A stretch of 64,000 bases of DNA from an uncultured Dehalococcoidia bacterium (GTDB taxonomy: Bacteria > Chloroflexota > Dehalococcoidia > SZUA-161): the NCBI GenBank assembly GCA_964574685.1, contig CAZNOI010000003.1, forward strand, positions 53,408 through 117,407, read 5' to 3'. How positions within the stretch are numbered: the stretch's first letter is position 1; each line of letters opens with the position of its first letter. The position numbers and the translations under genes were made by a program. Below the pieces are notes generated by a model. The model was given only the letters and a program-made list of their open reading frames with translations. It did no database searches and was not told where the DNA came from. This document shows positions 1 to 22,510 of the stretch, one piece after another.

Positions 1-363
1 GTCGAAGAGGCCGTGACCCTGGCTCAGGACAGGAAGGTCGGGGCTCTTCTCGTTGTCGACGACGGCAGGCTTGTCGGTATAGCCACGACAAACGACTTCT
101 TCTACAAGATACTCAACCCGATACTCGGCGTGGGCAAGCCGGGTTCACGCCTGGTCGTGCGGCATATCCAGAGCCCGGGCGATATCGAGCGCATAGTCGG
201 TGCGATAAACAAGCTGGGCCTGGAGGTCATGACGATGTTCATGCTGCCGGTGCCGGAGAGGGAAGCGCAGAACTTCGTCGTCCATCTGGTGTCCGATGAC
301 CCCACGCATCTGGTCACAGAGCTGAAGCTCCTGGGCTTCACCGTGGAGCGGCGTGCACGCTAA
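1..363 (+). CDS. CBS-domain protein, C-terminal portion (5' end lies outside the window)
   Basis: Frame is open from nt 1 (VEEAVTLAQDRKVGALLVVDDGRLVGIATTNDFF...). GxxTxxD CBS-like motif followed by an ACT-like tail. Stop at 361-363. Confidence 0.5.
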   Translation, partial: VEEAVTLAQDRKVGALLVVDDGRLVGIATTNDFFYKILNPILGVGKPGSRLVVRHIQSPGDIERIVGAINKLGLEVMTMFMLPVPEREAQNFVVHLVSDDPTHLVTELKLLGFTVERRAR

Positions 364-367
364 TGTG

Positions 368-397
368 TTGAACGGCTCCGAAGGCCTGTGCTATACT
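368..397 (+). promoter_or_regulatory. sigma70-like promoter (TTGAAC-18-TATACT) upstream of tRNA-Asn
   Basis: ttgaac at 368-373 and tatact at 392-397, about 30 nt before the mature tRNA 5' end at 427. Confidence 0.4.
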
Positions 398-426
398 CCA
401 CCACCGGAAGGCATCACCTCAGACGC

Positions 427-501
427 TCCCCGATAGCTCAACGGTAGAGCGGGCGGCTGTTAACCGCTAGGTTGTAGGTTCGAATCCTGCTCGGGGAGCC
501 A
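427..501 (+). tRNA. tRNA-Asn(GTT): tRNA-Asn (anticodon GTT), CCA encoded
   Basis: Hand-folded cloverleaf. Acceptor TCCCCGA pairs with TCGGGGA; D arm GCTC/GAGC; anticodon stem GGCGG/CCGCT; loop CTGTTAA; T arm GTAGG-TTCGAAT-CCTGC; discriminator G then CCA. Confidence 0.9.
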
Positions 502-2048
502 TTCTGTATGGAAGGTAAAACCCCCACCGTCTCACCGACCCGACCATCCGGAAACACAGGCAGCGTGTACCTCACCGTGACCTCGTCCCTGTCTACGTCG
601 ATTGCCTTGACGAACGACCGCAGGAAGGCCTTGCGCTCCATGATCTCCGAATTCTCCAGCAGGCTTCTGAGGTCCTCGACGTAGGCCTGCACCGCGCCCT
701 CGTCCGTCAGCTCGACCGCGTGGAACAGCAGCGACTCCTCGGCCTCCGATTTCGCGCGCTCCAGTTCCAGCTTGCGGTCGAACAGAGCGTTGATTCTGGA
801 CGACAACTGCGCTGGCTTGTACTCCCCCGTCTCCAGGGCGTCGTACAGCTTGCCCAGCCTCCCCTCGACCTCCCCCATTTGCAGTTGCAGCAGCTCGATT
901 CTCTCGTGCGCCTCCCTGGAAGCGCTCCGCAGCTCGTCATTGACCAGCCCCACCAGCTCGTGCAGGTTCTCATTCGTCAGGATGTGCTGCCTGATCTGGT
1001 CGACGATGAAGCCCTCAATTTTGGCCTTCGGCAGCAGCGGCGTGTCGCAGACATCGCGGCCGCGCCGTCGCGCGTTGCCGCACATGTAGTAGAAATGCCG
1101 CCCCGACTTCACCGCGTGGCCTATCATCGCAGCGCCGCAGTGCCGGCATCTTATCAGACCGCTCAGCGCGTACTCGCTGTGCACCGTACGCGGATGGCTG
1201 ACCCTGGGGGCGCGTTCGCCCAGCTTCTCCTGCGCCTTGGCGAACGTCTCAGCGTCGATGATTGCTGGCCAGGCATTCTCCACCCTCACCGGCGGGCTGT
1301 CGCCATTGCCCAGCTGCCTCTTCTTGCGCTTGTCCCACACCATGACTCCTGCGTATGCCTCATTCTGCAGGATGCCGTGTACAGAGGTTGTGCCCCACTT
1401 CCCGCCCGTCGCGCTGCCCACGCCGTCCCTGTTCAGCCCGCCCGCTATCTCCTTGAGGCCCCGCCCTTGCAGGCACTCCCTGAATATCCGCTGCACCACC
1501 GGAGCGGTCGCAGGGTCCGGCGCGAGCTTGCTTCTGGACATCTCTCCGTCCTGGACGCTCACCCTCTTGAACCCGTAGGGAGTGCGCCCCCCGTTGTGAT
1601 AGCCGCGCGACGCGCTTTCTCTCATTCCCCTGACCACGTCCTGCGACAGGTTGGCCGAATAGAACTCGTCGATGACCTCTATGATCCCTTCGAGGAGCTT
1701 CCCGGAAGGCGTGTCCTCCAGCGGCTCGCTCACCGAGATTACCTGCACGCCGTGCTTCCGCAGCAGGGACTTGTAGACGATTGAGTCCTCGCGGTTCCTC
1801 GCGAACCTGGAGAGCTTCCACACCAGGATAGTGTCGAACCGTGGTGGCTTTTGCCTCGCAGCGGCGATCATTCGCTTGAAGCCCGGCCTGTCGATGGAGC
1901 GCCCGCTCTCCGCCTCGTCGACGTACTCCCGCACCACCTCGTGCCCGTTGCGCGAGGCCCACTCCCTCAGCGCCTTGAGCTGCGCCGAGATCGACAGGTC
2001 CGTGTCCTGCCTGTCCGATGACACCCTTGCGTACAAAGCGACGTTCAT
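438..2048 (-). CDS. large serine recombinase / integrase
   Basis: N-terminal resolvase catalytic domain: MNVALYARVSSDRQ with Ser nucleophile, then ...TILVWKLSRFARN. Large C-terminal recombinase domain with Cys-rich zinc ribbon (CRHCG...YYMCG) and coiled coil. Start taken at MNV (2048), overlapping the upstream gene by ATGA. The 3' end overlaps the tRNA. Confidence 0.85.
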   Translation of the reverse strand: MNVALYARVSSDRQDTDLSISAQLKALREWASRNGHEVVREYVDEAESGRSIDRPGFKRMIAAARQKPPRFDTILVWKLSRFARNREDSIVYKSLLRKHGVQVISVSEPLEDTPSGKLLEGIIEVIDEFYSANLSQDVVRGMRESASRGYHNGGRTPYGFKRVSVQDGEMSRSKLAPDPATAPVVQRIFRECLQGRGLKEIAGGLNRDGVGSATGGKWGTTSVHGILQNEAYAGVMVWDKRKKRQLGNGDSPPVRVENAWPAIIDAETFAKAQEKLGERAPRVSHPRTVHSEYALSGLIRCRHCGAAMIGHAVKSGRHFYYMCGNARRRGRDVCDTPLLPKAKIEGFIVDQIRQHILTNENLHELVGLVNDELRSASREAHERIELLQLQMGEVEGRLGKLYDALETGEYKPAQLSSRINALFDRKLELERAKSEAEESLLFHAVELTDEGAVQAYVEDLRSLLENSEIMERKAFLRSFVKAIDVDRDEVTVRYTLPVFPDGRVGETVGVLPSIQNGSPSRIRTYNLAVNSRPLYR

Positions 2049-2893
2049 CGTGCCCCTCCGTTCCGTGGTAACGCGATCTCGCTGATGTCCCATGTCCCGT
2101 TGCCGTCCAATGCAGAATTGCCGCCGTGCACATAGCAGTAGTCTATTGAGTCGTAGTCGTTCATCTCCAACATTTCCACAGTCGCCTGCACCGCGTCGGC
2201 CTCTGCTCCCATGTAACCCGTAGTAAGCAGAATCAGGAACGTGCTTGTTGCGCCTCGCCGCTTGGCCTCTTCCAGTTGGTCGTCGGCATCTTTCACGTTC
2301 TTGTTGAACTGGTCAAACGCCTTACCGCTCAAGGCGTGTGTGTGGCCATTGTAGAACTGATTCACCGCATCTGGGTTCAGGAATGAGCCATCCTCCTTCC
2401 ACTTGCGCAGCGTCACCCAGAAGTCATGAGGCAGTCGGTCCGATAGCTTGCCCTGCAAGTCGCCAGTGAGGTCTACTTCATCACCCAAGGCCATATCTCT
2501 TGATCGCGTCGCAATGACATCACGGAGGGCATCCCGGAGCAGCATTCTGCCGTCCCTCCTCAAGTCCAGGGCGACTAGGTCGGACACGTTCATCGACCAG
2601 ATGAATGTGCCTGACAACTCTCCGGACACAGCCTCCGCCACTTCGCGGCATATCGCTTCCAGTAGCGACGTCTGTTCGTGCAGCGCCGCATCAGTTAATC
2701 TCTTGACCTCAATGGCTACCTCGTCTCCCGTACCGGTGTCCTTGGCTACCCAGTCCGGGTTCTTCTGGCCCTGCTCCGGTTGGCCGTGCACGTCTGTGTA
2801 GCGCCCTACGAGTTCGATCGCCGTGCCATGTGTCTCGTTGTGTAGCTGCAAGACCCGCTCTACATACGACCGCTGCCATTCCTCATCTGCCAT
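2045..2893 (-). CDS. hypothetical protein, translationally coupled upstream of the recombinase
   Basis: 283-aa ORF from MADEEWQRSYVERV... No recognisable motif. Its stop overlaps the recombinase start (ATGA). Confidence 0.5.
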   Translation of the reverse strand: MADEEWQRSYVERVLQLHNETHGTAIELVGRYTDVHGQPEQGQKNPDWVAKDTGTGDEVAIEVKRLTDAALHEQTSLLEAICREVAEAVSGELSGTFIWSMNVSDLVALDLRRDGRMLLRDALRDVIATRSRDMALGDEVDLTGDLQGKLSDRLPHDFWVTLRKWKEDGSFLNPDAVNQFYNGHTHALSGKAFDQFNKNVKDADDQLEEAKRRGATSTFLILLTTGYMGAEADAVQATVEMLEMNDYDSIDYCYVHGGNSALDGNGTWDISEIALPRNGGAR

Positions 2894-3064
2894 CGTTGCC
2901 CCTCTCAACCGTAGCCTCCGGCGCATTTTAGCACATTTGTTCCATAAATGCAAGTATTTAGTACATGATTTTCACCAACGAGCTTCAAGACTGCTCCGCC
3001 CCGTGACATTCTCCGGTTGACCGTGTCCGACATCTGTTGATACCCTGCGCCACAGGAGCAAGAA

Positions 3065-3310
3065 ATGGTCAAGGCACGCACACCCGTACATCTCAAGGTC
3101 AACAGCGTCGCCGTCTGGAACTACCTCACTAGGCGCAACCTCGCCCAGAACGAGCTTGCCAAGCAGCTCGGCATCAGCACTGGCTACATGGCCCAGCTCA
3201 TCAGCGGCAAGAGAAGCCCGTCGCCCGCGCTTCGCCGCCGCATGCTCGAAACACTCGCCCCTCTCTCCTTCGACGACCTCTTCCAGGTATCAGAGAGGGA
3301 CGCCCTGTGA
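3065..3310 (+). CDS. XRE/Cro-like HTH transcriptional regulator
   Basis: NLAQNELAKQLGISTGYMAQLISGKRSPS is a typical XRE HTH. Divergent from the recombinase operon, a classic int/regulator layout. Confidence 0.7.
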   Translation: MVKARTPVHLKVNSVAVWNYLTRRNLAQNELAKQLGISTGYMAQLISGKRSPSPALRRRMLETLAPLSFDDLFQVSERDAL

Positions 3311-3458
3311 CGACCCTGCGCCAGGAGACGACGCCCGCCCCCGCCCTCGCACACGACGAGCCGTACGAGGGACTTCGCATCCTCGCCCGCATGATCGCCC
3401 GCGCCCACCTCGCCCGCACCGAGATCCCCGCCGACACCGACGCCAGCGGAGACCGCTG

Positions 3459-4106
3459 ATGCCCCGCCGCTGGTCCAGCCCCCAGACCCGAGCCTGGGCG
3501 TACCGCTATCTTGTCCTTCGGGACGGCGAGAAATGCGCCCTCTGCGGCAAAGTCCCGAAGAACACTTATTCCCTCGACATTGACCACATTGATCGTGACC
3601 CGACTAACACCTATCCCCACAATCTGCGCCTTCTGTGCCGCTCGTGCAACGTAGCTGAGGAGAACCGCAAACGCCCAAGTGACGCTGTGTGTGTGGGTGT
3701 GAAAGGCAGGGAGAGGCCGGGGACGAGGATAGCCAGGGACGTGGTGCCGTACTACGAAGGAAGCCCGGAGATGCAGGCGAACGCCCTTTTCGAGGTGCGC
3801 TATCGCCACTGGCTGCAGGGCTTCATAGACGCCCGAGGCTTCATACCGAAGAAGGAGGCCGTGAACGCTGGGGCTGAGGCCGTGGGGTGCAGCCCCGCGA
3901 CCGCGGCAAGGTACCTGGCCAAGCTCACGTCCTATCTAGGCCCACTGAAGGAGACCAAGGACATGCTGGGAGAGCCGGTGGTGACATCGAGGGCGGACGA
4001 CGGAGATTGCCCCCCAGGCTGTCCGTCGCAGGGGGAGGAACTGGCCCGCCGCCGTGGTGGGCGTCTAGCAGAGCCATCAAGCGACGGTGGTGAGGCCGAC
4101 GACTGA
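3459..4106 (+). CDS. HNH endonuclease (phage-type)
   Basis: CALCGK...LDIDHIDRDPTNTYPHNLRLLCRSCN (CxxC...DH...N...CxxC). The listed ORF 3156-4106 has a low-complexity Arg/Pro N-terminus. The in-frame ATG at 3459 is the plausible start. Confidence 0.7.
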   Translation: MPRRWSSPQTRAWAYRYLVLRDGEKCALCGKVPKNTYSLDIDHIDRDPTNTYPHNLRLLCRSCNVAEENRKRPSDAVCVGVKGRERPGTRIARDVVPYYEGSPEMQANALFEVRYRHWLQGFIDARGFIPKKEAVNAGAEAVGCSPATAARYLAKLTSYLGPLKETKDMLGEPVVTSRADDGDCPPGCPSQGEELARRRGGRLAEPSSDGGEADD

Positions 4107-4273
4107 GCCGCCCCGAGGTGCAGGACGCCTCCTGCCGGTTCTTGTGAAGGAGGAACAAGCCATGAAGCTGCTCAAGACCGCAATCGAGACCCAGCGCTGG
4201 GACCTCGCGGCGCACACCCTTGTGCTGGGGGCCGCCCTGGTTCTGGACGCACGAAAGAACGGAGCGGGAAGGA

Positions 4274-4630
4274 ATGCCAAGACAGAAGCGAAAACGAGGC
4301 GCGCAGCCCGGAAACCGCAACGCGCTTAAGCACGGCTTCTACTCGGAGGCCCTGAAGGAAGCCGAGAAGCTTGAGCTGGAGGCCGCCCGTGACCTCGACG
4401 GCCTGGACGACGAGATCGCGCTCCTGCGGGTGAAGATCAAGTCCCTGGTGGCGCACGACTCCGACGACATCAAGCTGCTGATCGATGCCACCAGCACCCT
4501 CGCGCGCCTCCTGCGGACCCGCTACAACCTCCAGCAGCACCAGCACGACGGCATCCGCGACGCCATCACCAGCGTCCTCACCGACCTCGCCATCCCCCTC
4601 GGGGTCACCATAGCAAAGGGTACAATGTGA
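4274..4630 (+). CDS. putative phage terminase small subunit-like / DNA-binding protein
   Basis: N-terminus MPRQKRKRGAQPGNRNALKHGFYSE (basic stretch plus GNxNAxKHGxYS, as I recall it from phage TerS-like proteins), then a coiled-coil region. HNH next to TerS is a common phage packaging arrangement. Confidence 0.35.
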   Translation: MPRQKRKRGAQPGNRNALKHGFYSEALKEAEKLELEAARDLDGLDDEIALLRVKIKSLVAHDSDDIKLLIDATSTLARLLRTRYNLQQHQHDGIRDAITSVLTDLAIPLGVTIAKGTM

Positions 4631-4758
4631 CCTCGCCTGCTCCACGGCCCGAGTGGGTACTTCAGTGTACTTGCGTGCACCTCGGATAAGCTGCGTACTA
4701 TTGACAAAAACCCGCCTGGCCTATAACGTTTTCTCAAACAGCTGTGGGGTGGCTACGT

Positions 4759-5811
4759 ATGTTCACACTTCTCGACCTCTTCTGCGGAGCTGGCGGCATG
4801 ACGGCTGGCTTCGTCGATGCCGGATTCGTACCCATCTTCGCGGTGGACAGCTGCAGATGGTCCGTGGACACCTACAATGCCAATTTCGGACACCATGCCA
4901 CGTGCACGCCGGTCGAGGATGTTGAGCATTTCCCCAAAGCCGACGTCGTGATCGGTGGCCCCCCTTGCCAGGGATTCAGCAACCTTGGCAAGCGTCTTCC
5001 CTTTGACCCGAGGAATCAGCTGTGGCGCCACTTCGTACGCGCGATTGCGGCCGCGCAGCCCTTGTACTTCGTAATGGAGAACGTGCCAGAGCTGCTCAAG
5101 TCCGCCGAATATGAAGCGTTGAAAGCTGAGACCGAGGGCCTCGGGTATGAAGTTGACGGTCAGGTTCTGATCGCCGCCGACTACGGCATTCCTCAGACGC
5201 GCAAGCGTAGCTTCGTTATAGGCTCGCGCGTCGGGCCACCACTGTTCCCGGTGCCCACCCACCGGCGCCCTGACGAAGTCGACTTGTTCAATCTCCACCT
5301 GCCCCCCTGGCGGACGGTCAGGGACGCGATCGCGGACCTCCCACTTGTACCGACCGACTTCGACTGGCACATCGGCCGCAATCCTACTACGATGTCATTG
5401 GAGCGCTATCGTCACGTCCCCGAGGGAGGGAACCGATTCGATCTTCCCACGCACCTCCAGCCGCCGTGCTGGATACGGAAGACAAAGGGGGGAACCGACC
5501 TGTTCGGCCGGCTGTGGTGGGACAGACCTGCGTATACCATTCGGACTGAGTTCTTCAAGCCCGAGAAAGGACGCTACCTCCACCCCCAGGCCGACCGCCC
5601 GATAACCCATCGGGAGGCGGCGCGTTTCCAGACCTTCTCGGATGATTTCACGTTCTGCGGTTCGAAGATTGAGGTCGCCAAGCAGATAGGCAACGCGGTT
5701 CCGTCCCTGCTCGCTCGCAGGATCGCCGAGGCTGTTAGAGAAGCCGTTGGGGATGCTCAACTCACGAGTGCGTCGACTCAGCCCACTCGCGCAGTATGTC
5801 CAACGCAGTGA
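4759..5811 (+). CDS. DNA (cytosine-5)-methyltransferase
   Basis: Motif I LDLFCGAGGMTAGF, motif IV GGPPCQGFS, motif VI MENVPEL, motif VIII QTRKRSF, motif X GNAVPSLLA. Confidence 0.9.
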   Translation: MFTLLDLFCGAGGMTAGFVDAGFVPIFAVDSCRWSVDTYNANFGHHATCTPVEDVEHFPKADVVIGGPPCQGFSNLGKRLPFDPRNQLWRHFVRAIAAAQPLYFVMENVPELLKSAEYEALKAETEGLGYEVDGQVLIAADYGIPQTRKRSFVIGSRVGPPLFPVPTHRRPDEVDLFNLHLPPWRTVRDAIADLPLVPTDFDWHIGRNPTTMSLERYRHVPEGGNRFDLPTHLQPPCWIRKTKGGTDLFGRLWWDRPAYTIRTEFFKPEKGRYLHPQADRPITHREAARFQTFSDDFTFCGSKIEVAKQIGNAVPSLLARRIAEAVREAVGDAQLTSASTQPTRAVCPTQ

Positions 5812-6406
5812 GCTCCGGTGGCTGCCCGGTCTCTTTCGACCTTGCCTCCAATGCCTTCATGACCTTCTTCGGCAGGTGAACGACTAGCTGTAGTGGCAGC
5901 TTCTCAGGGAAGGCCAAGGGGCATTCGCTGCAGCTCTCTCTCCGGCATGTAGCACACTCGCGCCTCTTTCGGATGTTGCAGGATGTGCACGTTGTCTGCA
6001 GGTTGCTGTCATCATCAGCGCCGTAGCGAATGAGCGGCACCTTGTGGTCTATGGTGGGACTGGGCTTGCCGGGGTCGTCGCCTACCTGTACAAGACAGAG
6101 CTGACACACATACCGGTCACGTGCATATATCCGCCTTCGCTGCTTGGCGCTGGGATATCTGCGGACCAGACGAGGCCTCACCGGCTCGGCTGACGTCCTA
6201 CGATAGTGCCACTGGCCGTTTATGTTCGACCTATCGATGTCGAAGCCGTACTCATCGCGAAGCTGCGCGATACGACGACGGTAGTCGCTCTGCCCGCTTA
6301 TCTTCAGCATTTCCTCTCGAGACACCCACTCGCCTACCGGTAGTGCGTCCAGGAACGGCTGAAGATGCTGTGGTACCGGGTCGACCCCTTTGCGGTTGCC
6401 TCCCAA
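5762..6406 (-). CDS. HNH-family restriction endonuclease (R subunit of Type II R-M), convergent with the methyltransferase
   Basis: VCQLCLVQ...IDHKVPLIRYG...NLQTTCTSCN HNH core plus extra CxxC pairs. The 3' end overlaps the methyltransferase gene by 50 bp. The controller gene lies immediately upstream. Confidence 0.6.
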   Translation of the reverse strand: MGGNRKGVDPVPQHLQPFLDALPVGEWVSREEMLKISGQSDYRRRIAQLRDEYGFDIDRSNINGQWHYRRTSAEPVRPRLVRRYPSAKQRRRIYARDRYVCQLCLVQVGDDPGKPSPTIDHKVPLIRYGADDDSNLQTTCTSCNIRKRRECATCRRESCSECPLAFPEKLPLQLVVHLPKKVMKALEARSKETGQPPELTALDILREWAESTHS

Positions 6407-6408
6407 GT

Positions 6409-6648
6409 CTACTCTTCTCCCTCGACTGCCGACTGAAAGAACGACATCGACTTCCCGTATGCGCGGGCGAACTCCACCAACTCCACGAAGTCAACGCGTC
6501 GCTCGCCAGACTCGCACTTAGATATGTACGACTGAGACCTGCCAAGGCGCTTCGCGGCCTCTGCCTGAGTCAAACCGGCTTCCAGTCGCGCTCGCCGCAG
6601 GCTGGCGACAAGACTCTCGTATGATTGCCTGTCTTCACCCCGCTTCAT
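6409..6648 (-). CDS. controller (C) protein-like XRE HTH regulator of the R-M system
   Basis: 80 aa from MKRGEDRQS.... LEAGLTQAEAAKRLGRSQSYISKCESGERR is an XRE HTH. Its stop codon is 3 bp from the endonuclease start (C-R operon). Confidence 0.6.
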   Translation of the reverse strand: MKRGEDRQSYESLVASLRRARLEAGLTQAEAAKRLGRSQSYISKCESGERRVDFVELVEFARAYGKSMSFFQSAVEGEE

Positions 6649-6819
6649 GACCGTGTCTGCTCTGACCAAGAACGGCATTATCCCATTCTGGAATAGATAT
6701 CCCAAATTGGAATATCGCGCCCTCCGCATTGAGTCTCAGACACGCAGCGGGTCGTACCATGTGGTGTGAAATGCCGACAAGTGGCAGAATAGGGTGGACC
6801 ATGTCACCATGGGGGCCGC

Positions 6820-7521
6820 ATGACTGCTCAAGACAAGGGTGCACACGACCTGGACCAGCTTGCGGTTGACCAATTCCGGCAGGTTCTAGTCCTGTGGTTC
6901 CGCGCTCACGGTCGGGACCTTCCCTGGCGGCGCACACGTGATCCCTACGCGATTCTACTGTCGGAAGTGCTGTTACAGCGGACGCAGGCCTCTCAAGTCG
7001 CGGCCCACTTTGATTCGATCATCTCCGCAATTCCGACTATCACTTCACTCGCTGGTGCCTCGGAGCAAGACATCCGTGTAATCTTAGCGCCGCTGGGCCT
7101 TGCCAAACGCGCAGGTACGCTCCGCGCCATGGCGGTTGACATCATTGAGCACTACGATGGCTCTGTCCCGTCGAATGTCAACTCTCTTATGGCACTGCCC
7201 GGAGTCGGCCGCTACATCGCTTCGGCGACTGCCTGCTTCGCGTTCGGTGCCAAGACGCCGGTACTAGATGCGAACGTCATCCGTATCCTCAGCAGGTACT
7301 TCGCCGTGGCTTCCGCCATCAAACGCCCGCGATATGACAACCGGCTCTGGAGTGCAGCGGCAGACATCTTGCCGGAATCCGACTACGTCGATTTCAACAG
7401 AGCGCTGATTGACTTCGCTTCTCTTGTCTGCACCGGCCGACGGCCTGGCTGCCTTGACTGCCCACTACGTTCTACCTGCCGGAACGCCGTCGACGCCCTT
7501 ACCCGATTGTCTGAGACTTGA
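6820..7521 (+). CDS. EndoIII/MutY-family HhH-GPD DNA glycosylase with [4Fe-4S] loop; context suggests a Mig-type T:G mismatch glycosylase
   Basis: LPWRRTRDPYAILLSEVLLQRT; HhH LPGVGRYIASA; catalytic VLDANVIRILSR; C-x6-C-x2-C-x5-C (CTGRRPGCLDCPLRSTC). 233 aa, EndoIII-sized. Lies adjacent to the C5-methyltransferase. Confidence 0.75.
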   Translation: MTAQDKGAHDLDQLAVDQFRQVLVLWFRAHGRDLPWRRTRDPYAILLSEVLLQRTQASQVAAHFDSIISAIPTITSLAGASEQDIRVILAPLGLAKRAGTLRAMAVDIIEHYDGSVPSNVNSLMALPGVGRYIASATACFAFGAKTPVLDANVIRILSRYFAVASAIKRPRYDNRLWSAAADILPESDYVDFNRALIDFASLVCTGRRPGCLDCPLRSTCRNAVDALTRLSET

Positions 7522-7591
7522 CAAGACGGGCCTCCTGGCGTATTTACTTACATGTTCGGCACCGGTTCATCGCCGACACAAGGAGACAACC

Positions 7592-9556
7592 ATGACCGAA
7601 GAGGACAGGGCGCTCTACCTGAGGTTCCATGGTCGGATACTAGAGCATTTTGGCATCCAGACTTACCAAAGCCCGGTTGCCGCCATCGCGGAGCTTGTGG
7701 CGAATTGCTGGGACGCGGATGCAAGTGAAGTGCGAATAGTGCTTCCGGCGAACTTGGGGGACAATGCCACCATCGAGATACTGGACGACGGTATCGGCAT
7801 GACATTCGATGAGTGTCAAGAACGCTACCTAAGCGTTGGTCTGAACCGGAGGGCCAATGACCCGGATGAACGTTCGCCGGAGAAGAGGAGACCGATCTTG
7901 GGCCGCAAGGGAATAGGCAAGTTCGCTGGCTTCGGCATTGCAGAAACCATGCGCATCTCAACGACCAGCAAGCAGACGGGCGAGGCGACCGTGTTCGAGC
8001 TTCGTCTACCTGACCTAATCAGCGATGAATACGTAAGCACCAACGATAAGCCTGTCGACATCGTTGAGCATAGGTCTCCCGATGACCAACGCAAGTTGGA
8101 GCACGGCACTGTTGTGACACTATCGGGGCTCAAGCTCGGAAAGACTCCGTCGCCCGACGCGTTCGCCAAGAGTATGGCTCGTCGTTTTCTGCTCCTCCAG
8201 CAGCAGGCCGACTTCCGGGTGCTTGTCAATGATCAGGAGTTGCCCAAATCCTTCGACTTGCAGGACGTGCAATACGTGTTTCCCCGCGACTACAAATCTG
8301 AGGAGATGCCCGCCGATCTTGAGACACAAGACATTGAACTCTATGGCGTGGAGAAGCTATCCAACGACCGTAAGATCCGATGGCAGTTCTGCTTCCACAA
8401 TGATACGATTGACGACGAGGAGCTGCAGGGTATTGCTATCTTCGCCAAGGGGAAGCTCATCCAGGCCCCATTCCTTTTCAATCTCAGCGGTGGTCTCGGC
8501 GGTCAACACGGGGTAGCCTATCTGTCTGGTCAAGTCCAGGCGGACTACCTTGACTCGCTCTCCGTGGACCTTGCCGCTACGGAGCGTCAGAGGGTCAACT
8601 GGGAGCATAGAGAGAGCGCCCCACTGCTGGAGTGGGGGCAGACCAGGATCAAGGAGCTCCTCAGGACTTGGCAAGACCGCCGAGGTGAGCAGAGAACTCG
8701 CATGCTTGATCAACGCGTGTCCGGTTTCTCATCGAGGTTGGGCAGACTACATTCACCTGAGCAGCGAACGGTCTCCAAAGCTTTGAGGAAGCTTGCCCAA
8801 GTTTCCACACTGAATGATGCACAATTTGAAGACCTCGGAAACGCGGTACTCACCGCGTGGGAAGAGGGACGCCTCAGAGGACTCATTGACCAGATTGCCC
8901 AAGCTCAGACCATGTCCGAGGAAGACCTCCTCAGCGTCCTCCTGGAGGCACAGGCGCTCACGGCTCTCAACGTGGCAGAAGCAGTCCGAACCAAGCTCCA
9001 GACTGTGGCTGGCCTGATACAGCGTATAGAACGCCGTGAGCTCGAAACAGCTGTACGCGACTACATAGCGAAGAACCCTTGGCTTATAGCTCCCCAATGG
9101 GAAACCTTCCGCAAGGAGACTACTGTTAAGCACCTCCTAGATCAGGCCGCCGGGCAGGTCGGTTTCACCGACAACGAGTTCAACGGTCGTGTCGACCTCG
9201 CACTCGCGAGCGGCAATCACCTGCTTGTTCTCGAATTCATGCGACCAAGCCTTACCCTCAATTGGGACCATCTACAACGCTTCGAGAGATACGTCCTGAA
9301 TATACGGGGCAACATAGACGCCAACACCGCTGGCGTTTTCAGGCGCGTCACTGGTTACGTAATAGCAGACAACCTTGAGGCTCGGTCGGATAATCGCGCC
9401 AAGATTACTTCTATGGTCAAAGAAGACATGTACGCCCTCGATTGGCGCTCCCTCTTCAGCCAGGCCCTTGCCAAGTGGCAGGAGTTCCTTGACATACTCG
9501 TCTCACGGGCTCCGGAGGACGAGCGTCTGCAGGCTCTACTCCAGCCTCCCGACTAA
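7592..9556 (+). CDS. MORC-like GHKL (HATPase_c_3-type) ATPase with long C-terminal region
   Basis: ELVANCWDADASEVRI (N box), IEILDDGIGMT (G1), GRKGIGKFAGFGIA (G2-like). C-terminal part contains NPWLIAPQW...GRVDLAL...LLVLEFMRPS, which resembles a restriction-endonuclease-like core. RBS AGGAG before ATG 7592. Confidence 0.75.
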   Translation: MTEEDRALYLRFHGRILEHFGIQTYQSPVAAIAELVANCWDADASEVRIVLPANLGDNATIEILDDGIGMTFDECQERYLSVGLNRRANDPDERSPEKRRPILGRKGIGKFAGFGIAETMRISTTSKQTGEATVFELRLPDLISDEYVSTNDKPVDIVEHRSPDDQRKLEHGTVVTLSGLKLGKTPSPDAFAKSMARRFLLLQQQADFRVLVNDQELPKSFDLQDVQYVFPRDYKSEEMPADLETQDIELYGVEKLSNDRKIRWQFCFHNDTIDDEELQGIAIFAKGKLIQAPFLFNLSGGLGGQHGVAYLSGQVQADYLDSLSVDLAATERQRVNWEHRESAPLLEWGQTRIKELLRTWQDRRGEQRTRMLDQRVSGFSSRLGRLHSPEQRTVSKALRKLAQVSTLNDAQFEDLGNAVLTAWEEGRLRGLIDQIAQAQTMSEEDLLSVLLEAQALTALNVAEAVRTKLQTVAGLIQRIERRELETAVRDYIAKNPWLIAPQWETFRKETTVKHLLDQAAGQVGFTDNEFNGRVDLALASGNHLLVLEFMRPSLTLNWDHLQRFERYVLNIRGNIDANTAGVFRRVTGYVIADNLEARSDNRAKITSMVKEDMYALDWRSLFSQALAKWQEFLDILVSRAPEDERLQALLQPPD

Positions 9557-9589
9557 ACAGACTGAACCTTCCTTCAGGAGGCCTTTCCC

Positions 9590-10426
9590 ATGGCCTACGT
9601 AATCCTCACTCAGAGAGTCCCTCCCGACGACTACCGGGACGAGATCGGCACACTGTACAACTACCCTCGGCGATACTGGAGGCGACTCTACACAGGCGAT
9701 CGCATGATCTATCACCAGCCGCGCGATCGTTCAAACGGAGGAATGGTCTATTTCGGATGCGGTGTAGTCGGAGACATCCAACCCGACCCTCACGACCCAA
9801 ACCGGCGTAACGCAGAGATCGTCGACTACACAGCCTTTGAAAGGCACGTTCCCGTCACGCGTCGGGGCCGGTTTCTTGAGCCTGCCATCAATAGGCAGGT
9901 CGACATGGTAGGCAACGCAGTTCGCACTATTGATGAACCGACCGCTCTCGCCATCCTGAGTGCTTCTCATACGCAGCCCCCATGGGCTTGGCTGCCCACC
10001 GGTGGGACCGGGGCACCACCATCGTCGCCTACTAACGAGGCGGACCTGCGGCGTGCTATTGACACCTTCGACCAGCACTATGCAAGCCTGGCCCCCGAGC
10101 GCCGTGCGCGCACGCTATCGACGCTTCATCGCCCATCATCCATAGGGGCATACCTGAAGCAGCTCTACGGCACCAGATGTCGCATCTGCGGCGTGGACGG
10201 TTTCCTGCAGAGAATCGGGACCTCCTATGCCGAGATTCACCACGTCGATGAGCTCAGCACTGAACACCCCGGAGTTCTCGGCACGCAGAACATCTTGATC
10301 CTCTGTCCTACCTGTCACAGAAAGCTCCATTTCGCGAACGTCACTGTCATTCCCACTTCCTTGGGCTGGGACATGACCATCAATGGTCGGCATGTCGCCG
10401 TCCAAAGGATGCATAGCCCCGCCTGA
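9590..10426 (+). CDS. HNH endonuclease with about 190-aa N-terminal domain of unknown type (possibly modified-base/DNA binding)
   Basis: C-terminal CRICGVDG...AEIHHVDELS...NILILCPTCH HNH motif. N-terminal region YVILTQRV...YNYPRRYWRRL...MVYFGCGVV has no motif I can name. Starts 34 bp after the GHKL gene, same strand. Confidence 0.7.
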   Translation: MAYVILTQRVPPDDYRDEIGTLYNYPRRYWRRLYTGDRMIYHQPRDRSNGGMVYFGCGVVGDIQPDPHDPNRRNAEIVDYTAFERHVPVTRRGRFLEPAINRQVDMVGNAVRTIDEPTALAILSASHTQPPWAWLPTGGTGAPPSSPTNEADLRRAIDTFDQHYASLAPERRARTLSTLHRPSSIGAYLKQLYGTRCRICGVDGFLQRIGTSYAEIHHVDELSTEHPGVLGTQNILILCPTCHRKLHFANVTVIPTSLGWDMTINGRHVAVQRMHSPA

Positions 10427-10860
10427 CCATACGGCCCGCGCACCGGCGTAGGGGTGCCTTCCGGCCTAGACAGGCTCGCCTCCGGCACCCCCTGTTGGGT
10501 CGCTTCGTTCTCCCTAGGCCCTGGTGGTGCCTGCCGCCGGGGTTTCACCACCCCACGGCATCGTGCCTTCGGCACCATGCCGCCCCAGTGCAGGGCACCG
10601 TGGCTGCGGCTCCGCTGGCTTGCTCGCTCCGCTCCGGCTTCTCGGCGGGCGCGCAGGCTGCCCCGCCCCGCCCCTCCAATCAACATGGATCGAGCGGGGA
10701 GACAAAGCGGACACTGCCGAGTACTGCCTCCCGGAGTTGCCACTGGACTGTAGTAGAGTCCCAATGGGTGGTGTATGAGGGGGCTGGAAAATAGCTACCG
10801 CCCGGGAGATGACTGATAGCGAAAGGCGCCTCTACAGCAAGGCAATGAGAGGGAGGCGAA

Positions 10861-11100
10861 ATGGCTGATTTGGATAAGGAGATCAAGAGAATAGAAGCGG
10901 GCGACGCCTGGGACGAGAGCGATGAAGTCGTCCGGGTAGAAGTGAAGAAGCCTCTGGACAAGGTGATCCCCGTGCGGCTCTCGGCGGACAAGTGGGAGGA
11001 GCTGAGGAAGGAAGCCACTGAGCTTGGCATCGGTCCGACGACCCTTGCCCGGATGTGGATACTGGAGCGTTTGCGACTTGGGACGAAGGCCGGAGTCTAG
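10861..11100 (+). CDS. RHH/CopG-like (BrnA-type) antitoxin-like protein, orphan
   Basis: IPVRLSADKWEELRKEATELGIGPTTLARMWILERL is a ribbon-helix-helix antitoxin-like sequence. No toxin ORF adjacent. Confidence 0.5.
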   Translation: MADLDKEIKRIEAGDAWDESDEVVRVEVKKPLDKVIPVRLSADKWEELRKEATELGIGPTTLARMWILERLRLGTKAGV

Positions 11101-11149
11101 CGGTGATAACCTGTCACTTTGATTGTGATATGGCGTTTCATCACCTCTG

Positions 11150-11353
11150 CAATGGGGACTTTCAGTCTATCCAACACTTCGGTCAGTTCCCTCTCCCTCT
11201 AAGGGAGAGGGTCAGGGTGAGGGTGCGTAAATGCATGCGGCTTAAGAATGGTGCTGCGGCGGTTGTTCGCCTCACTCCGGCTTTCTCCCCTTTGGGGAGA
11301 GAGGGGATGGTTTCGCTTTGGTCAGTGCTGCCCTCTCCCTCTAAGGGAGAGGG
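11150..11353. repeat. cluster of three GC hairpin repeats (REP/MITE-like family), locus A
   Basis: CCCTCTCCCTctaAGGGAGAGGG at 11189-11211 followed by tcAGGGTGAGGGTGCG. TCTCCCCtttGGGGAGA at 11284-11300. A second CCCTCTCCCTctaAGGGAGAGGG at 11331-11353. Lies between convergent gene ends. Confidence 0.6.
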
Positions 11354-12478
11354 TCAGGCGGCCGTGTGCGCGGCGGTCCGGCAGCGGGCAGCCTCTGCTG
11401 TGTACTCTGCAATCAGGGATTGCATGAGTTCGCTGACCGATATGATGGTGTCCACGCGATAGGCGTTGGCCCCGGCGAAGGCGAAGCCGTTCCTCATGTT
11501 ACCCCTCTTCGCGTTGGCCAGCGCCAGCGCGATACAGTAGCTGGACTTCTCGAAATCACAGGTCTTGAGGCACTTCCAGGGGCACTTGAACGGCTTCCTT
11601 GCACCTGCAGCCACTTCATCGAGGAACCGGCTCCTGATGGCCCTGCCGGGCAGGCCGACCGGGGAGTCGATGATGGTCAGGTCCCCCTCTTTGCAGTTCA
11701 CATATGCATCTTTGAACTGCGTTGCCGCATCACATTCGTATGTCCCCACGAACCTGGTCGCCATCTGAACGCCCTTCGCGCCAAGCTCCATGAACTGGAA
11801 CATGTCCGCGCCTGTGTAGACTCCGCCCGCTGCGATAACTGGGATGCTCTTCCCGAAGCGTTGCTCGTAGGGCTCAATGGCGGAAATTGCGTCCATCAGT
11901 ATGTTCTTCAGTGAGTAGGCGGGATCGTCGATCTGTTCTCTCTTGAACCCGAGATGCCCTCCGGCCAGAGGGCCTTCCACCACGACAGCATCCGGCACGT
12001 GATTGTAGCTCCGCGCCCATTGCTGGAAGACGATCCTGGCTGCTCTTGCGGAGGATATGATCGGGACTACCCTGGTCGCCCCCTGTGTAAGGCGGTCGAT
12101 GGCAAGTGCGTCGGGTTTCTTGGCGAGTCCCGCCCCGAGGAAGACCAGGTCGGCGCCCTCATCGAAGGCGGTCTCGACCAGTCCATCATAGTCGTTGAGA
12201 GCTACCATTACGTTCACACCGATTATGCCCTTGGTAACGTCCCTCGCTTTGCGTATCTCGGCGCGAAGCGCACGTTTGTTGGCCTCTCTGGAGTTGGTCA
12301 TGAAGTCGGACTCGTGAAGCCCGATTCCGGCGGTGGCAATGACTCCGATCCCACCTTCATTCGCGACGGCGGAGGCCAATCGGGAGAGGGAAATGCCTAC
12401 CCCCATTCCTCCCTGGACTATTGGAATACTTGCTTCCAGGTCACCAATTCGAAGCCCTGGAAGTCCGTTAAGTCTCAT
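11354..12478 (-). CDS. nitronate monooxygenase / FabK-like enoyl-ACP reductase family (NPD) protein
   Basis: IVQGGMGVGIS...GGIGVIATAGIG... and overall NMO-family (FMN TIM-barrel) fold, with a Cys-rich C-terminal extension. Confidence 0.75.
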   Translation of the reverse strand: MRLNGLPGLRIGDLEASIPIVQGGMGVGISLSRLASAVANEGGIGVIATAGIGLHESDFMTNSREANKRALRAEIRKARDVTKGIIGVNVMVALNDYDGLVETAFDEGADLVFLGAGLAKKPDALAIDRLTQGATRVVPIISSARAARIVFQQWARSYNHVPDAVVVEGPLAGGHLGFKREQIDDPAYSLKNILMDAISAIEPYEQRFGKSIPVIAAGGVYTGADMFQFMELGAKGVQMATRFVGTYECDAATQFKDAYVNCKEGDLTIIDSPVGLPGRAIRSRFLDEVAAGARKPFKCPWKCLKTCDFEKSSYCIALALANAKRGNMRNGFAFAGANAYRVDTIISVSELMQSLIAEYTAEAARCRTAAHTAA

Positions 12479-12803
12479 TCAGTGTCTTTCTGGGTTGCTG
12501 CACGCAACCGGGCCATAGTATAGCAGGCACATTTCAAAAGTACAGAGGGGTAGAGTATGAAATCGGTCTGAATTCTAGGCGGGCCTCCATCGAAGTCGAG
12601 AACTGCCCGGCGGTACCATTTGCCCTTTCCGTACAGGTCGATAGTACCATTGTGCCTCCGACGGGCAGGTGCTACATTTGGCTAGGAGCGCATGCGACCA
12701 TCATCCGCAGTCGGAGCCTGTCGCTCAATGGTGCAGGCTTCCCAAGGGAAGGCGGCCGCTTCGACGCGAGGCCTGAGTTCGTCAACAGGGAGGCCAGCAA
12801 CAG

Positions 12804-14762
12804 ATGCCAACGAAGAGAGCCGCCAGACCAGATTCTACTACGAACACCGGGAAAACGCGGAAGCAGTCCGGACCCAGGAGTCGGGCCGCGAACGGCCCAC
12901 TACCGCCTTTCGACGTGGATATCGAGATCGACGCCACTGCTGTACTAACCCGGGACGGCAAGATCCGCTACCAGAGCCCATCGGTCGAGCAGCTACTGGG
13001 CTACAGGGCTGACGAGGTGACCGGCAGGGACTTCGTGGAGCTGCTTCACCCCGACGACGCGCGAAGCGCGACCGAGAAGCTTGAGGTGGTCACGGAGAAC
13101 CCCGGACGTACCGTCTCCATGGAGATGCGCTTTCTGCACAAGGACGGCTCATGGCGAACCGTCGAGAGCGTGGGCACTAACCTTCTCGATGACCCTGAAG
13201 TCAACGGCATCATCATGAGCTATCGCGACGTCAGCAGTCGCAAGAGACTGGAGGACCAACTCTGGTTGCTCCAGAATGCGATAGAGAACGCGATCGCACC
13301 CATGGCCATCTCCGACATACAGGGCAACATAACCTACGTCAACCAAGCGTGCATGAAGCTGTGGCGTCGCGACAAGAAGGAGGACCTGGTCGGCGGGTCC
13401 TACTGGGAACTGCTGGAGCTGGAGGATCCTGCGCTGGCTGACGAGATCGCATCCACCATGATCGAGAGCGGCTCGTGGGAGGGCGAGATCGCCGCTCGTA
13501 GGAAGGATGGCTCAACCGTACACGTCAGGGTCCTGACCAGCATTCTCAAAGACAAGGACGGCAAGCCCATCCAGACCATTTCATCGTTCGTTGATCTGAC
13601 TGACAGGAAGCGTGTGGAGCAGGCTCTTCGGGAGTCGCAGGCGCAATACACCGCACTGCTCGACAACGTACCCGATGCGGTCTTCCGCTACCAGGAAGGC
13701 GTCATGACCTGGGCCAACGACAGGATCGAGCAGATCCTGGGCTACAGCAGGGACGAGCTTGTCGGCAAGGTCGCGGATCTCTTCGTCTCCGACGACGTAA
13801 GCCTCACCCAGGTGACCGAAACGGTGGGAGAGGGAATCAGGGAGCAGGGCCACTTCCGTGGCACTATCAAGGCGAAGAAGAAGAACGGCACAGAGGTTGA
13901 CATAGAGTTCTCAGCCTCCAATGTTCGTGGCAAGCGCCCCGTTGAGATTGTCGGTGTTGCCCGCGACATAACCGAACGCAAAAAGGCTGAGGAGGAACGA
14001 GAGAGGCTGACGGCCGAGCTTGCGGAGAAGAACGCGGAGCAGGAGCAAATCATATACGTTACCTCTCATGACCTTCGTTCGCCGCTGGTCAATGTTCAGG
14101 GCTTCAGCAAGGAACTCAAGTACTCGGTCGAGGAAGTGGGCACCATCTTGAGTTCCGAAGAGGTCCCACAAAGCATACGGGACCAGGTTGTGCCGATACT
14201 CGATCAGGATGTCCCTGATGCACTTGCCTATATCGCGACAAGTGTATCAAAGATGGACACACTGCTGACGGGACTGCTGAGGCTGTCGCGTCTCGGCAGA
14301 GCAGCCCTGAGCTTCGAGAAGCTCAATATGAACCTGATGCTGTTCGACATAGCCAAGTACTTCGAGTTGCGTATCAGGGAACTTGGAGCGACCATCGATG
14401 TTGGCACTTTGCCACCCTGCACAGGGGATTTCGTCCAGACCAACCAGGTGTTCTCGAACCTCGTCGACAACGCTTTGAAGTATTCCGACCCGTCTCGACC
14501 ACCAGTCATCAAGGTCACAGGAGAGGTCGTGGATGAGGAGGTCGTCTACTGCGTGGCCGACAACGGCACCGGAATTGCCAGGGAGCACCAGAAGAAGGTC
14601 TTCGAGATATTCCACCGGCTCAATCCTGAGGCATCGGGGGGCGAGGGCCTCGGACTGAGCATAGTGAAGAAGGTAATCGGGCGCCACAGCGGCCGCATAT
14701 GGCTCGAATCGGAGCCGGGCGAAGGCAGCAAGTTCTACGTATCGTTGCCTGCGGCGGACTAG
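12804..14762 (+). CDS. multi-PAS sensor histidine kinase
   Basis: Several PAS repeats, HisKA H-box YVTSHDLRSPL, HATPase N/G boxes (DNALKYS..., ADNGTGIA...GGEGLGLSIV). Confidence 0.8.
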   Translation: MPTKRAARPDSTTNTGKTRKQSGPRSRAANGPLPPFDVDIEIDATAVLTRDGKIRYQSPSVEQLLGYRADEVTGRDFVELLHPDDARSATEKLEVVTENPGRTVSMEMRFLHKDGSWRTVESVGTNLLDDPEVNGIIMSYRDVSSRKRLEDQLWLLQNAIENAIAPMAISDIQGNITYVNQACMKLWRRDKKEDLVGGSYWELLELEDPALADEIASTMIESGSWEGEIAARRKDGSTVHVRVLTSILKDKDGKPIQTISSFVDLTDRKRVEQALRESQAQYTALLDNVPDAVFRYQEGVMTWANDRIEQILGYSRDELVGKVADLFVSDDVSLTQVTETVGEGIREQGHFRGTIKAKKKNGTEVDIEFSASNVRGKRPVEIVGVARDITERKKAEEERERLTAELAEKNAEQEQIIYVTSHDLRSPLVNVQGFSKELKYSVEEVGTILSSEEVPQSIRDQVVPILDQDVPDALAYIATSVSKMDTLLTGLLRLSRLGRAALSFEKLNMNLMLFDIAKYFELRIRELGATIDVGTLPPCTGDFVQTNQVFSNLVDNALKYSDPSRPPVIKVTGEVVDEEVVYCVADNGTGIAREHQKKVFEIFHRLNPEASGGEGLGLSIVKKVIGRHSGRIWLESEPGEGSKFYVSLPAAD

Positions 14763-14781
14763 TACGCATCTCAGGAGTGAT

Positions 14782-15240
14782 GTGATGAAGGGTGCATTGA
14801 CGATTCTGATAGCCGAGGATGACATGGGCCATGCCGCCCTGATCCAGAAGAACCTTAGAAGGGCCGGCATAAACAACCCCATAGTCCACTTCAAGGATGG
14901 GCAAGAAGCGCTGGATTTCCTGTATGGCAACTCTGATGAGCCGAAGTTCCAGTCTGGCAGCTCGTACCTGCTGCTACTCGACATAAGGATGCCAAAGGTG
15001 GATGGCGTCGAGGTGCTGCGAAGGGTGAAGGACGATCCGGGTCTCAGGAAGATGCCAGTGATCATGATCACCACAACTGATGATCCGAGGGAAGTGGCCC
15101 ACTGCCACGAACTCGGATGCAGCAACTACATCACCAAGCCAATAGAGTACGAGAACTTCGTAGAGGCCATCAGACAGCTCGGCCTGTTCCTGATGGTGGT
15201 GGAGGTGCCGGAGATCGATGGACAGACCCGGAACAACTGA
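14782..15240 (+). CDS. single-domain response regulator (CheY-like receiver)
   Basis: ILIAEDDMGHA...LLLLDIRMPKVDGVEV...MPVIMITT...ITKP, REC domain only. Confidence 0.8.
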   Translation: MMKGALTILIAEDDMGHAALIQKNLRRAGINNPIVHFKDGQEALDFLYGNSDEPKFQSGSSYLLLLDIRMPKVDGVEVLRRVKDDPGLRKMPVIMITTTDDPREVAHCHELGCSNYITKPIEYENFVEAIRQLGLFLMVVEVPEIDGQTRNN

Positions 15241-22460: not shown

Positions 22461-22510
22461 GACGTATCAATCGAATACCGCCCGTTTGCATGAGGGCAAG
22501 GGAGTCTGTG

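Follow-up and report, generated by a model that had tools for sequence, protein, structure and literature searches.

A large serine recombinase (LSR) gene that runs into tRNA-Asn, followed within about 11 kb by an array of nuclease genes, raises the question of whether these genes belong to one mobile element and of what kind that element might be. We analyzed this locus in a stretch of 64,000 nt, here called the window, from contig CAZNOI010000003.1 of an uncultured Dehalococcoidia bacterium (Chloroflexota, SZUA-161). Our reading is that positions 502 to about 10704 constitute an LSR-borne, tRNA-targeting, satellite-like element with a slot for defense cargo, and that it belongs to a small family present in genomes of Dehalococcoidia type. 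Judged from gene content and from comparison with related loci, we put the probability of this reading at about 0.65.

The extent of the island can be read from a relative in which the same place is occupied differently. Scans of genomes and metagenomes with the NMO gene downstream of the island, whose best matches are proteins of Dehalococcoidia metagenome-assembled genomes (MAGs) at 75-78% identity, uncovered one syntenic relative, L022 and L090 being a single sequence. Its gene order is a CBS-domain protein, tRNA-Asn, 3.9 kb of intervening DNA, hairpins of the repetitive extragenic palindrome (REP) type, NMO and a histidine kinase, with the same flanks as the window. Nucleotide homology covers window positions 1-503 and is found again from 11188; with synteny confined to the flanks, positions 504-11187 form the variable segment. 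The original prediction, made from the sequence alone, had placed an island at tRNA-Asn with bounds of 427-11360, of which the location stands and the bounds do not. The left junction (attL) lies at the tRNA 3' end, at about 499-503. In the relative, the interior (L022 1388-4741) holds a single gene of 1117 aa with HD-CE and HATPase_c_3 (GHKL) domains and has no recombinase. By its genes, the interval from tRNA-Asn to NMO is a variable locus of conflict or defense functions in both species. The tRNA-Asn(gtt) is the single tRNA found by ARAGORN in the window; a search of positions 1-13000 against Rfam at a permissive threshold returned no RNA family besides tRNA, and neither program found a tmRNA gene (ssrA) in the window. 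The target, the backbone of the element and its right end are as follows.

427-501 (+): tRNA-Asn(GTT), predicted integration target (ARAGORN; Rfam, 69 bits)
438-2048 (-): LSR, 536 aa, with Pfam domains Resolvase, Recombinase and Zn_ribbon_recom and a match to phrog_95, integrase (1e-129)
2045-2953 (-): orf302, occupant of variable slot 1; its start codon is uncertain and its stop overlaps the LSR start
3065-3310 (+): Cro-like helix-turn-helix (HTH) regulator, 81 aa, divergent from the LSR (HTH_3, 2e-6)
3307-3459 (+): orf50, a small conserved open reading frame (ORF), recognized by synteny in sister elements
3459-4106 (+): HNH endonuclease of phage-packaging type, 215 aa (Pfam HNH; PHROG HNH families)
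4274-4630 (+): homolog of the small terminase subunit (TerS), 118 aa (weak profiles and synteny with the large subunit, TerL)
10441-10674 (no strand assigned): 234-nt GC-rich non-coding block that closes the cargo on its right side and is conserved in L179 15115-15349
10692-10704 (+): candidate attR, which repeats the 3' end of the tRNA imperfectly (GAGCGGGGAGACA versus GCTCGGGGAGCCA at the tRNA end)

Two further loci carry the same backbone with other cargo and support the case for a single element. In an exact look-up, proteins from two other assemblies clustered at 90% identity with the HTH, HNH and TerS-like proteins, and the LSR and all cargo proteins were singletons. One of the two assemblies holds a sister element on contigs of about 105 kb (L178-L182), where tRNA-Lys(ctt) is overlapped by a 557-aa LSR. 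There (L179) the LSR is followed by an unrelated gene of 266 aa, the HTH, a 48-aa ORF, the HNH and the TerS-like gene, and then by cargo consisting of a 640-aa HSDR_N/N6_Mtase/Eco57I protein (a Type IIG-like methylase-nuclease), a 260-aa ORF, QueC and tRNA-Gly. Nucleotide identity to the window is 90.8% between window 2910-4607 and L179 9458-11125, and 90.4% between window 10441-10674 and L179 15115-15349, which leaves the defense cargo (4.6-10.44 kb) enclosed between two stretches that the window and L179 share. In a third member (L192), the LSR N-terminus (75%), HTH (71%), orf50, HNH (81%) and TerS-like gene (62%) are present, and beyond them lie a pair of pentapeptide-TIR proteins, a protease and Fic. 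At the protein level, identities to the sister element are 95% for the HTH, 76% for orf50 (against the 48-aa gene at the matching place), 96% for the HNH and 88% for TerS; orf50 of the third member is 51% identical. Homologs of the HTH also adjoin an LSR in L082-L084. The backbone of the family consists of the LSR N-terminus, the divergent promoter region with the Cro-like HTH, orf50, HNH, TerS and the 234-nt right-end block. It holds two slots, one between LSR and regulator and the other between terS and the right-end block, the latter occupied in the window by the defense genes. The earlier proposal of a mobile defense island at tRNA-Asn is borne out in that the segment is replaced in the syntenic relative and the backbone recurs with other cargo in the two family members.

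Occupants of the first slot differ throughout the family: orf302 in the window, orf266 in the sister element, and a 243-aa gene with an HTH_31 gene in the third member. Despite their shared position, orf302 and orf266 are unrelated. The orf302 product has no match in Pfam, PHROG, PADLOC or NCBIfam, and its single-sequence AF2 model is poor (pLDDT 49); by reading of the sequence, a candidate PD-(D/E)xK motif (D..EVK) can be proposed in it. One sample (L181) has lost 86 nt of orf266 relative to L179 (L179 8909-8994), the two sequences being otherwise 100% identical over 12 kb.

The right-end block was found nowhere else besides the window and L179 in about 2.2 Mb of fetched loci. It has no Rfam match, its fold z-scores (-1.3 and -1.4) are not significant, and it could be an accessory attachment (att) site, a packaging site or a small RNA. 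One of its hairpins, GGCATCGTGCC-TTC-GGCACCATGCC, is lengthened in the sister element by a symmetric CC/GG insertion (2+2 nt). Two independent Logan assemblies of the strain in the window, L172 (SRR7048218) and L173 (SRR7048220), correspond to window 4541-15811 and 4541-10568. Both therefore start at 4541, in the TerS gene and left block, and one stops at 10568, in the right block; assembly breaks in both conserved blocks suggest that sister elements coexist in the samples.

The recombinase itself is closely tied to the tRNA 3' end. Its open frame spans 438-2093 on the minus strand, and the public gene call starts at 2048 to give 536 aa (P0001, 100% identical). The overlap with tRNA-Asn, which had been noticed from the sequence alone, amounts to 64 nt, and the final 21 codons are antisense to the tRNA. 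All expected domains are present (Resolvase, 2.4e-35; Recombinase PF07508, 2.8e-25; Zn_ribbon_recom PF13408, 1.9e-15), the catalytic motif YARVSSDRQ is invariant in the alignment of homologs, and the protein is full length against them. Whether the recombinase might be a truncated pseudogene had been raised earlier; by these features it is intact. Among named NCBIfam models CcrB comes closest (6e-50), with a score far under its cut-off, and the clade is very large, with 4142 proteins at E <= 1e-50 whose named sources point to Dehalococcoidia or Chloroflexota. Three homologs at 60-70% identity overlap tRNA-Asn in antisense in the identical manner, in unrelated neighborhoods and with unrelated cargo: P0010 (64-65%, L086-L088) adjoins polA, P0074 (60-61%, L089) adjoins clpB, and P0002 (70%) is found in L084 and L085. 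The C-terminal peptide translated from the antisense T-arm, (R/G)(I/T)RT, occurs in at least 20 of 119 close LSR homologs. In L086 (8928-9848) and L087 (4403-5323), a 306-aa gene with Resolvase and Recombinase domains lies directly upstream of the tRNA-Asn-associated LSR; it shares 56% identity with the LSR in the N-terminal half of the latter and may be a DsiA/CcrA-like partner or a truncated duplicate.

Comparison of the two halves of the LSR points to a mosaic protein. The first 60 residues are 90% identical to those of the tRNA-Lys sister (the first 36 aa being identical) versus 80-83% to tRNA-Asn-associated LSRs, and the Recombinase and zinc-ribbon domains are 42-46% identical to the sister versus 53-69% to tRNA-Asn-associated LSRs. 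The DNA-binding half thus tracks the target tRNA and not the backbone of the element.

Several of the related tRNA-Asn genes are themselves unusual. In L083-L085 the anticodon loop of tRNA-Asn(GUU) is split by a group I intron (Rfam RF00028, 92 and 86 bits), at L084 11329-11932, L085 2839-3442 and L083 11551-11833, and these split genes were missed by ARAGORN. At the LSR ends in these loci, the LSR is directly followed only by the 3' 40 nt of the tRNA. We considered whether these tRNA-Asn 3' halves might be attP, the anticodon loop being the place of crossover, and rejected this interpretation, because the 5' half of the tRNA lies 529 nt away and the insert is the group I intron. In L084 the 529-nt insert also encodes a Cys/His-rich ORF of 126 aa, possibly a homing endonuclease.

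For the right junction, a core shared between the tRNA 3' region and 10.4-11.4 kb had been suggested. We found no clean direct repeat there; an imperfect one is present at 10692-10704, which agrees with the final 10 nt of the tRNA at 9 positions (10/13 overall) and begins about 20 nt past the conserved right block. Two hits of this quality occur in 64 kb. The analogous sequence of the sister element, GCGCCCTTCCAC at L179 15569-15580, matches GCGCCCTACCAC at the tRNA-Lys end at 11 of 12 positions and is unique in 20.6 kb. On these similarities, the odds are somewhat better than even that 10692-10704 is attR. If so, the crossover would lie at the acceptor/CCA end of the tRNA, the element would span 502 to about 10704 (10.2 kb), and a BrnA-like ORF further to the right would belong to the flank. 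A crossover at this end would fit an LSR that overlaps only the 3' exon of intron-bearing tRNA-Asn genes. A search for inverted repeats (P/P') between the junctions gave a best match of 12/17, indistinguishable from chance.

The phage affinity of the conserved core is apparent from gene order in phage-like contigs. In an IMG/VR contig (L183) the order is HTH, HNH (57%), TerS-like gene (54%), orf81 and a 453-aa Terminase_6C protein; in another locus (L195) the TerS-like gene (53%) overlaps the start of the Terminase_6C protein and the HNH (51%) comes after. Because they are syntenic with TerL in both, we regard HNH and TerS as phage packaging genes. The original prediction had listed phage-like HNH and TerS-like genes and a divergent Cro-like HTH, the last of which is confirmed at 3065-3310. 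HNH enzymes paired with terminase are a known arrangement of cos-type packaging, of which SaPI provides an example. The profile matches of TerS are weak (phrog_1889, 6e-7; NCBIfam, 2.5e-4 and 20.8 bits against a cut-off of 120). A 316-aa long form of the HNH gene was rejected, its additional N-terminus being false and of low complexity, and the recorded gene has 215 aa. Pfam, PHROG and NCBIfam scans of 502-10704 revealed no TerL, capsid, tail or lysis gene, and likewise no relaxase, oriT-associated or conjugation gene.

These features suggest how the element may work. As its family and arrangement indicate, the LSR would carry out integration at the 3' terminus of a tRNA gene, which in the window is tRNA-Asn. 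With the LSR gene facing the tRNA, its frame extends into the antisense tRNA once the element is integrated; in a circular form predicted from the minus-strand sequence, the frame would end ...LPSIQN-VSPLDPC and stop eight codons past the junction. The most likely route of transfer would be by way of a helper phage that supplies TerL and particles, with the HNH and TerS of the element directing packaging. Cargo would probably be swapped by recombination in the conserved flanks, and a change of target could come about through a swap of the DNA-binding half of the LSR. A bolder form of this model, tentative and in our opinion doubtful, holds that the elements represent an undescribed family of minimalist Dehalococcoidia phage satellites, made up of serine integrase, regulator, HNH and TerS and retargeted between tRNA-Asn and tRNA-Lys by exchange of the DNA-binding half. 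The integrase would then take its C-terminus from the antisense tRNA when integrated and from the P arm when excised, which might aid directionality control, and the slot after terS would be a hotspot of defense-gene exchange, as in P4 or PICI.

The second slot of the element in the window carries six genes.

4759-5811 (+): cytosine-5 DNA methyltransferase (M), first cargo gene (Pfam DNA_methylase, 1.4e-59; P0121, 100% identical)
5762-6406 (-): HNH-type Type II restriction endonuclease (R) (PADLOC REase_II PDLC03478, 1e-40, nearly full length; Pfam HNH)
6409-6729 (-): HTH protein of controller (C) type, upstream of R (HTH_31/HTH_3, 1e-13 to 1e-14; PADLOC Control_protein, 1.8e-4)
6820-7521 (+): HhH-GPD/[4Fe-4S] DNA glycosylase, Mig-like (V) (Pfam HhH-GPD; PADLOC 'Type II nicking endonuclease', 5.6e-41)
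7592-9556 (+): 654-aa protein with a GHKL domain, probable member of the R.HgiDII/BbrUII family of restriction enzymes (NCBIfam NF050001, PADLOC, PHROG)
9590-10426 (+): 278-aa HNH nuclease whose C-terminal domain is McrA/TagI-like (PDB 6ghc and 6ghs; PADLOC)

The first four form a restriction-modification (R-M) cassette. R is convergent with M and overlaps it by 50 nt, and it had no match in plasmids. The stop of the C gene overlaps the start of R, and C is called as 86 or 106 aa in the two Logan assemblies; ACATGGT motifs are repeated upstream of it, although a C-box is not established. In another lineage (L174, L176, L177), the order M, convergent HNH and HhH-GPD is kept around a methylase of 63% identity. 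With the M-HNH arrangement conserved elsewhere, the HNH enzyme is likely the cognate nuclease of M. The glycosylase has a C-x6-C-x2-C-x5-C motif, falls under the cut-off of the NCBIfam mutY model and lacks the MutY C-terminal domain. By its family, it would be a Mig/V-type partner of the 5-methylcytosine (5mC) methylase, repairing the T:G mismatches that arise from 5mC deamination.

The GHKL protein aligns over its full length with NF050001 (5e-88), its 296 bits lying under the family cut-off of 550, and it also matches PADLOC REase_II (1e-42) and phrog_6203 (8.5e-130). In R.HgiDII itself, as described by Orlowski and Bujnicki (2008, PMC2441816), the GHKL domain is joined to a C-terminal domain that has no assignment. 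Homologs are encoded immediately behind a 5mC methylase, with no HNH nearby, both in Halobaculum and in the prophage of a Pantoea plasmid (48% identity); the Pantoea methylase is 35% identical to M of the window. In view of the full-length HgiDII-family alignment and this context of its homologs, a MORC-style partnership between the GHKL protein and the HNH gene that comes next is rejected. In an alignment read by eye, residues of about 533-552 (window 9190-9260) resemble a nuclease motif of PD-(D/E)xK/DUF4263 type in which the lysine is replaced; the haloarchaeal homolog has D...DLKRP at the matching position, and Pfam has no match there. The last cargo gene, which matches PADLOC mREase_IV (3.5e-8), resembles McrA (PDB 6ghc, 1e-7) and TagI (6ghs, 4e-3) in its HNH domain only; its N-terminal 150 aa have no family match, and the single-sequence AlphaFold model is poor (pLDDT 39). 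It is a candidate Type IV (modification-dependent) enzyme. Of the cargo listed in the original prediction, the Type II R-M system with a C-type HTH and the Mig-like glycosylase are upheld, the latter by its domain content and its linkage to the 5mC methylase, and with the packaging-type gene of the core there are indeed three HNH enzymes (3459-4106, 5762-6406 and 9590-10426). The proposed GHKL/HNH pair exists as two neighboring genes, but the GHKL protein is probably of the HgiDII family and the pairing is not conserved in homologs.

Several observations weigh against the satellite-like reading. The family so far has three members, and the exact LSR and cargo are known from one strain only. 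The NMO-guided scans, with their one syntenic relative, found no empty tRNA-Asn site of the kind that the original prediction had proposed to look for in close relatives, and no excised form was seen; L022/L090, about 76% identical to the window, lack the segment but carry an alternative insert at this place. A copy of the tRNA 3' end of 22-40 nt was found neither in the window nor within 10 kb of five related LSRs (22-mer with <=3 mismatches, 40-mer with <=8, 24-mer with <=5-6, and Smith-Waterman). The two attR repeats are short, and with a word length chosen post hoc their chance expectation in the allowed intervals is 0.016-0.2 for the window and 0.018-0.1 for the sister element. No primase, replicase or origin was recognized in any ORF of 502-10704 (Pfam, PHROG, NCBIfam), which is unusual for satellites. 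No helper phage was seen, TerS has no match among cultured phages, and it is recognized as such from gene order and from a profile match that is short. No methylase adjoins the HgiDII-like enzyme, the nearest lying 1.8 kb upstream past R, C and V, and the enzyme may be inactive or reliant on this distal methylase. Composition likewise fails to set the island apart, contrary to an expected deviation from the flanks: tetranucleotide distances (4-kb windows versus the rest) are unremarkable over the island (z -0.25 to 1.45). GC content is 0.56-0.65 between island blocks versus 0.58-0.60 in the near flank, and GC skew is negative from 1 to 11 kb and positive after about 12 kb, where the left flank is too short to ascribe the shift to the island. 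We regard composition as neutral on recent acquisition, since it fits exchange among compositionally similar hosts or a long residence.

The phage affinity of the core could also be that of a decayed prophage, which integrated via the LSR, lost its structural, lysis and replication genes, had the gap filled by defense genes and is no longer mobile. TerL does come after HNH and TerS in the phage-like contigs, an LSR relative (L084) lies in a prophage-like context with primase, helicase and RusA, and the lack of a clean attR and of a replication gene, together with a fully ameliorated composition, would agree with decay. However, the phage-like part stops just after terS in all three elements, each time followed by different cargo, two of the three have the right-end block in common, and the core genes and LSR are intact. 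The same truncated architecture is not expected from random decay, and its presence in three elements argues for a satellite-like design, so that we consider a decayed prophage unlikely. The original prediction of a phage-satellite remnant that kept int, regulator and terS thus holds as to the likeness to satellites, and the word remnant is probably wrong, the short core being a conserved architecture.

Alternatively, the tRNA may border a static hotspot in which the LSR, R-M, HgiDII-like and McrA-like genes were inserted separately, the LSR moving itself or nothing. The recombinase-free HD-CE and GHKL gene in the same interval of the relative speaks for this, as do the spread of GC between blocks, the existence of the M/HNH/V cassette alone elsewhere, and the GHKL homologs that travel elsewhere as M-R pairs. 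We nevertheless hold it to be quite unlikely: the cargo is bracketed by two blocks about 90% conserved with the sister element and in each of the two elements the right block is succeeded by a short repeat of the tRNA end, which places the defense genes inside a recombinase-delimited unit. An integrative mobilizable element, moved by conjugation or in vesicles and using HNH and TerS in another role such as regulation or homing, would have a precedent in the ssrA islands of Dehalococcoides, where the LSR is arranged in the same way and which are viewed as integrating and mobilizable (McMurdie et al., PMC3146451), and no helper phage is known here. The scans that detected no relaxase, oriT-associated or conjugation gene, and the synteny that marks HNH and TerS as packaging-type, make this account very improbable.

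Within the satellite-like reading, the ssrA islands are still the closest precedent, although the element in the window is not a member of the ssrA-GI family. In these islands the 3' end of the LSR (DsiB) always overlaps attL and the RNA gene, with the stop codon outside the island, and the route of transfer is unknown (McMurdie et al. 2011, PMC3146451). Compared by published arrangement and not by sequence identity, both have the same host class, a recombinase of about 540 aa on the opposite strand beside the target RNA gene and overlapping it at the 3' end, CcrB as nearest named relative, cargo, and no transfer genes. They differ in target (ssrA versus tRNA-Asn here and tRNA-Lys in the sister), in direct repeat (20 bp versus an imperfect 9/10), and in cargo, which consists of reductive dehalogenases in the DsiB islands and of defense genes, plus the HNH/TerS packaging core, in the window. 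The DsiB islands also have a six-gene integration module (with the small recombinase DsiA and RecF-, ParB- and Mom-like proteins) whose domains are absent from the element in the window.

Phage satellites (P4-like, PICI/cf-PICI and PICMI; PMC9122126, PMC10085698, PMC10803314) resemble the element in size (about 10 kb), in their integrase with a divergent regulator, in a small terminase redirecting packaging, in the absence of structural and lysis genes, and in a bracketed anti-phage slot. Unlike P4, PICI and PICMI, the element has an LSR in place of a tyrosine integrase, has its own HNH, resides in Chloroflexota with no known helper, and has no recognized primase, replicase or capsid-remodeling gene. 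Tycheposons of Prochlorococcus (bioRxiv 10.1101/2020.12.28.424599) are likewise tRNA-targeting cargo elements that form islands by tRNA genes; the type of integrase goes with the tRNA that is targeted, PICI-like forms with terS occur among them, and a minority of 27 of 937 have an LSR. They differ from the element in phylum, in their mostly nutrient-acquisition cargo, and in usually having replication genes and partial tRNA repeats. Among the cargo, the GHKL protein shares with R.HgiDII/BbrUII enzymes (PMC2441816) a layout in which GHKL at the N-terminus precedes a long C-terminal domain, and differs in scoring under the NCBIfam equivalog cut-off and in having no methylase directly upstream.

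An integrase-bearing defense island by a tRNA gene is ordinary in itself, and the interest here, which is moderate, lies in the family, the apparent retargeting of a serine integrase and the little-studied host lineage. If the satellite-like reading holds, satellite-type carriers of exchangeable anti-phage systems would extend to the uncultivated, environmentally important Dehalococcoidia (Chloroflexota), and serine-integrase islands that read into their RNA-gene target, so far known from the Dehalococcoides ssrA islands, would extend further. It would also provide a natural case of LSR retargeting between tRNA genes on an otherwise 90%-identical backbone, and the matched pairs of enzyme and site could help in the study or engineering of LSR target specificity. 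The cargo is a compact test case in which a 5mC R-M system with a T:G repair glycosylase stands beside an HgiDII-type GHKL nuclease without its own methylase.

To the right of the candidate attR lie three further features.

10861-11100 (+): BrnA/CopG-like ORF of 79 aa (NCBIfam BrnA, 3.9e-4, 20.5 bits against a cut-off of 60; Pfam CopG_antitoxin, 0.07, 14.3 against 28)
11189-11358 (no strand assigned): REP-type hairpin cluster downstream of NMO, with repeats conserved at the same place in L022/L090
11354-12478: NMO, then a PAS histidine kinase and response regulators

The first had been called an orphan ribbon-helix-helix antitoxin; the ORF is there, but its scores are under the cut-offs, no toxin-like ORF is adjacent or upstream, and it is absent from L022. 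It lies inside the variable segment and probably outside the LSR element. The hairpin cluster, which had been taken for the end of the island, does precede the NMO and two-component genes. It includes two 28-nt palindromes of identical sequence, at 11189 and 11331; a further copy is present at 17168 (17168-17190), and REP-like palindromes of the form CCCTCTCCCTnnnnGGGAGAGGG recur between genes in the genome of the window and in L090, in many copies. As they occupy the same place in the relative and have copies elsewhere in both genomes, the hairpins are host REP sequences that mark the flank and not the island. REP-like palindromes also appear in gene calls as spurious peptides of the 'GEGQGEG' type. 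Further downstream, a single ORF of 3423 aa (22490-32761, +) has Propeptide_C25, Peptidase_C25 (gingipain-like), DUF4350 and CARDB domains, and it coincides with the sole tetranucleotide outlier of the window, at 24-30 kb (z up to 3.35).

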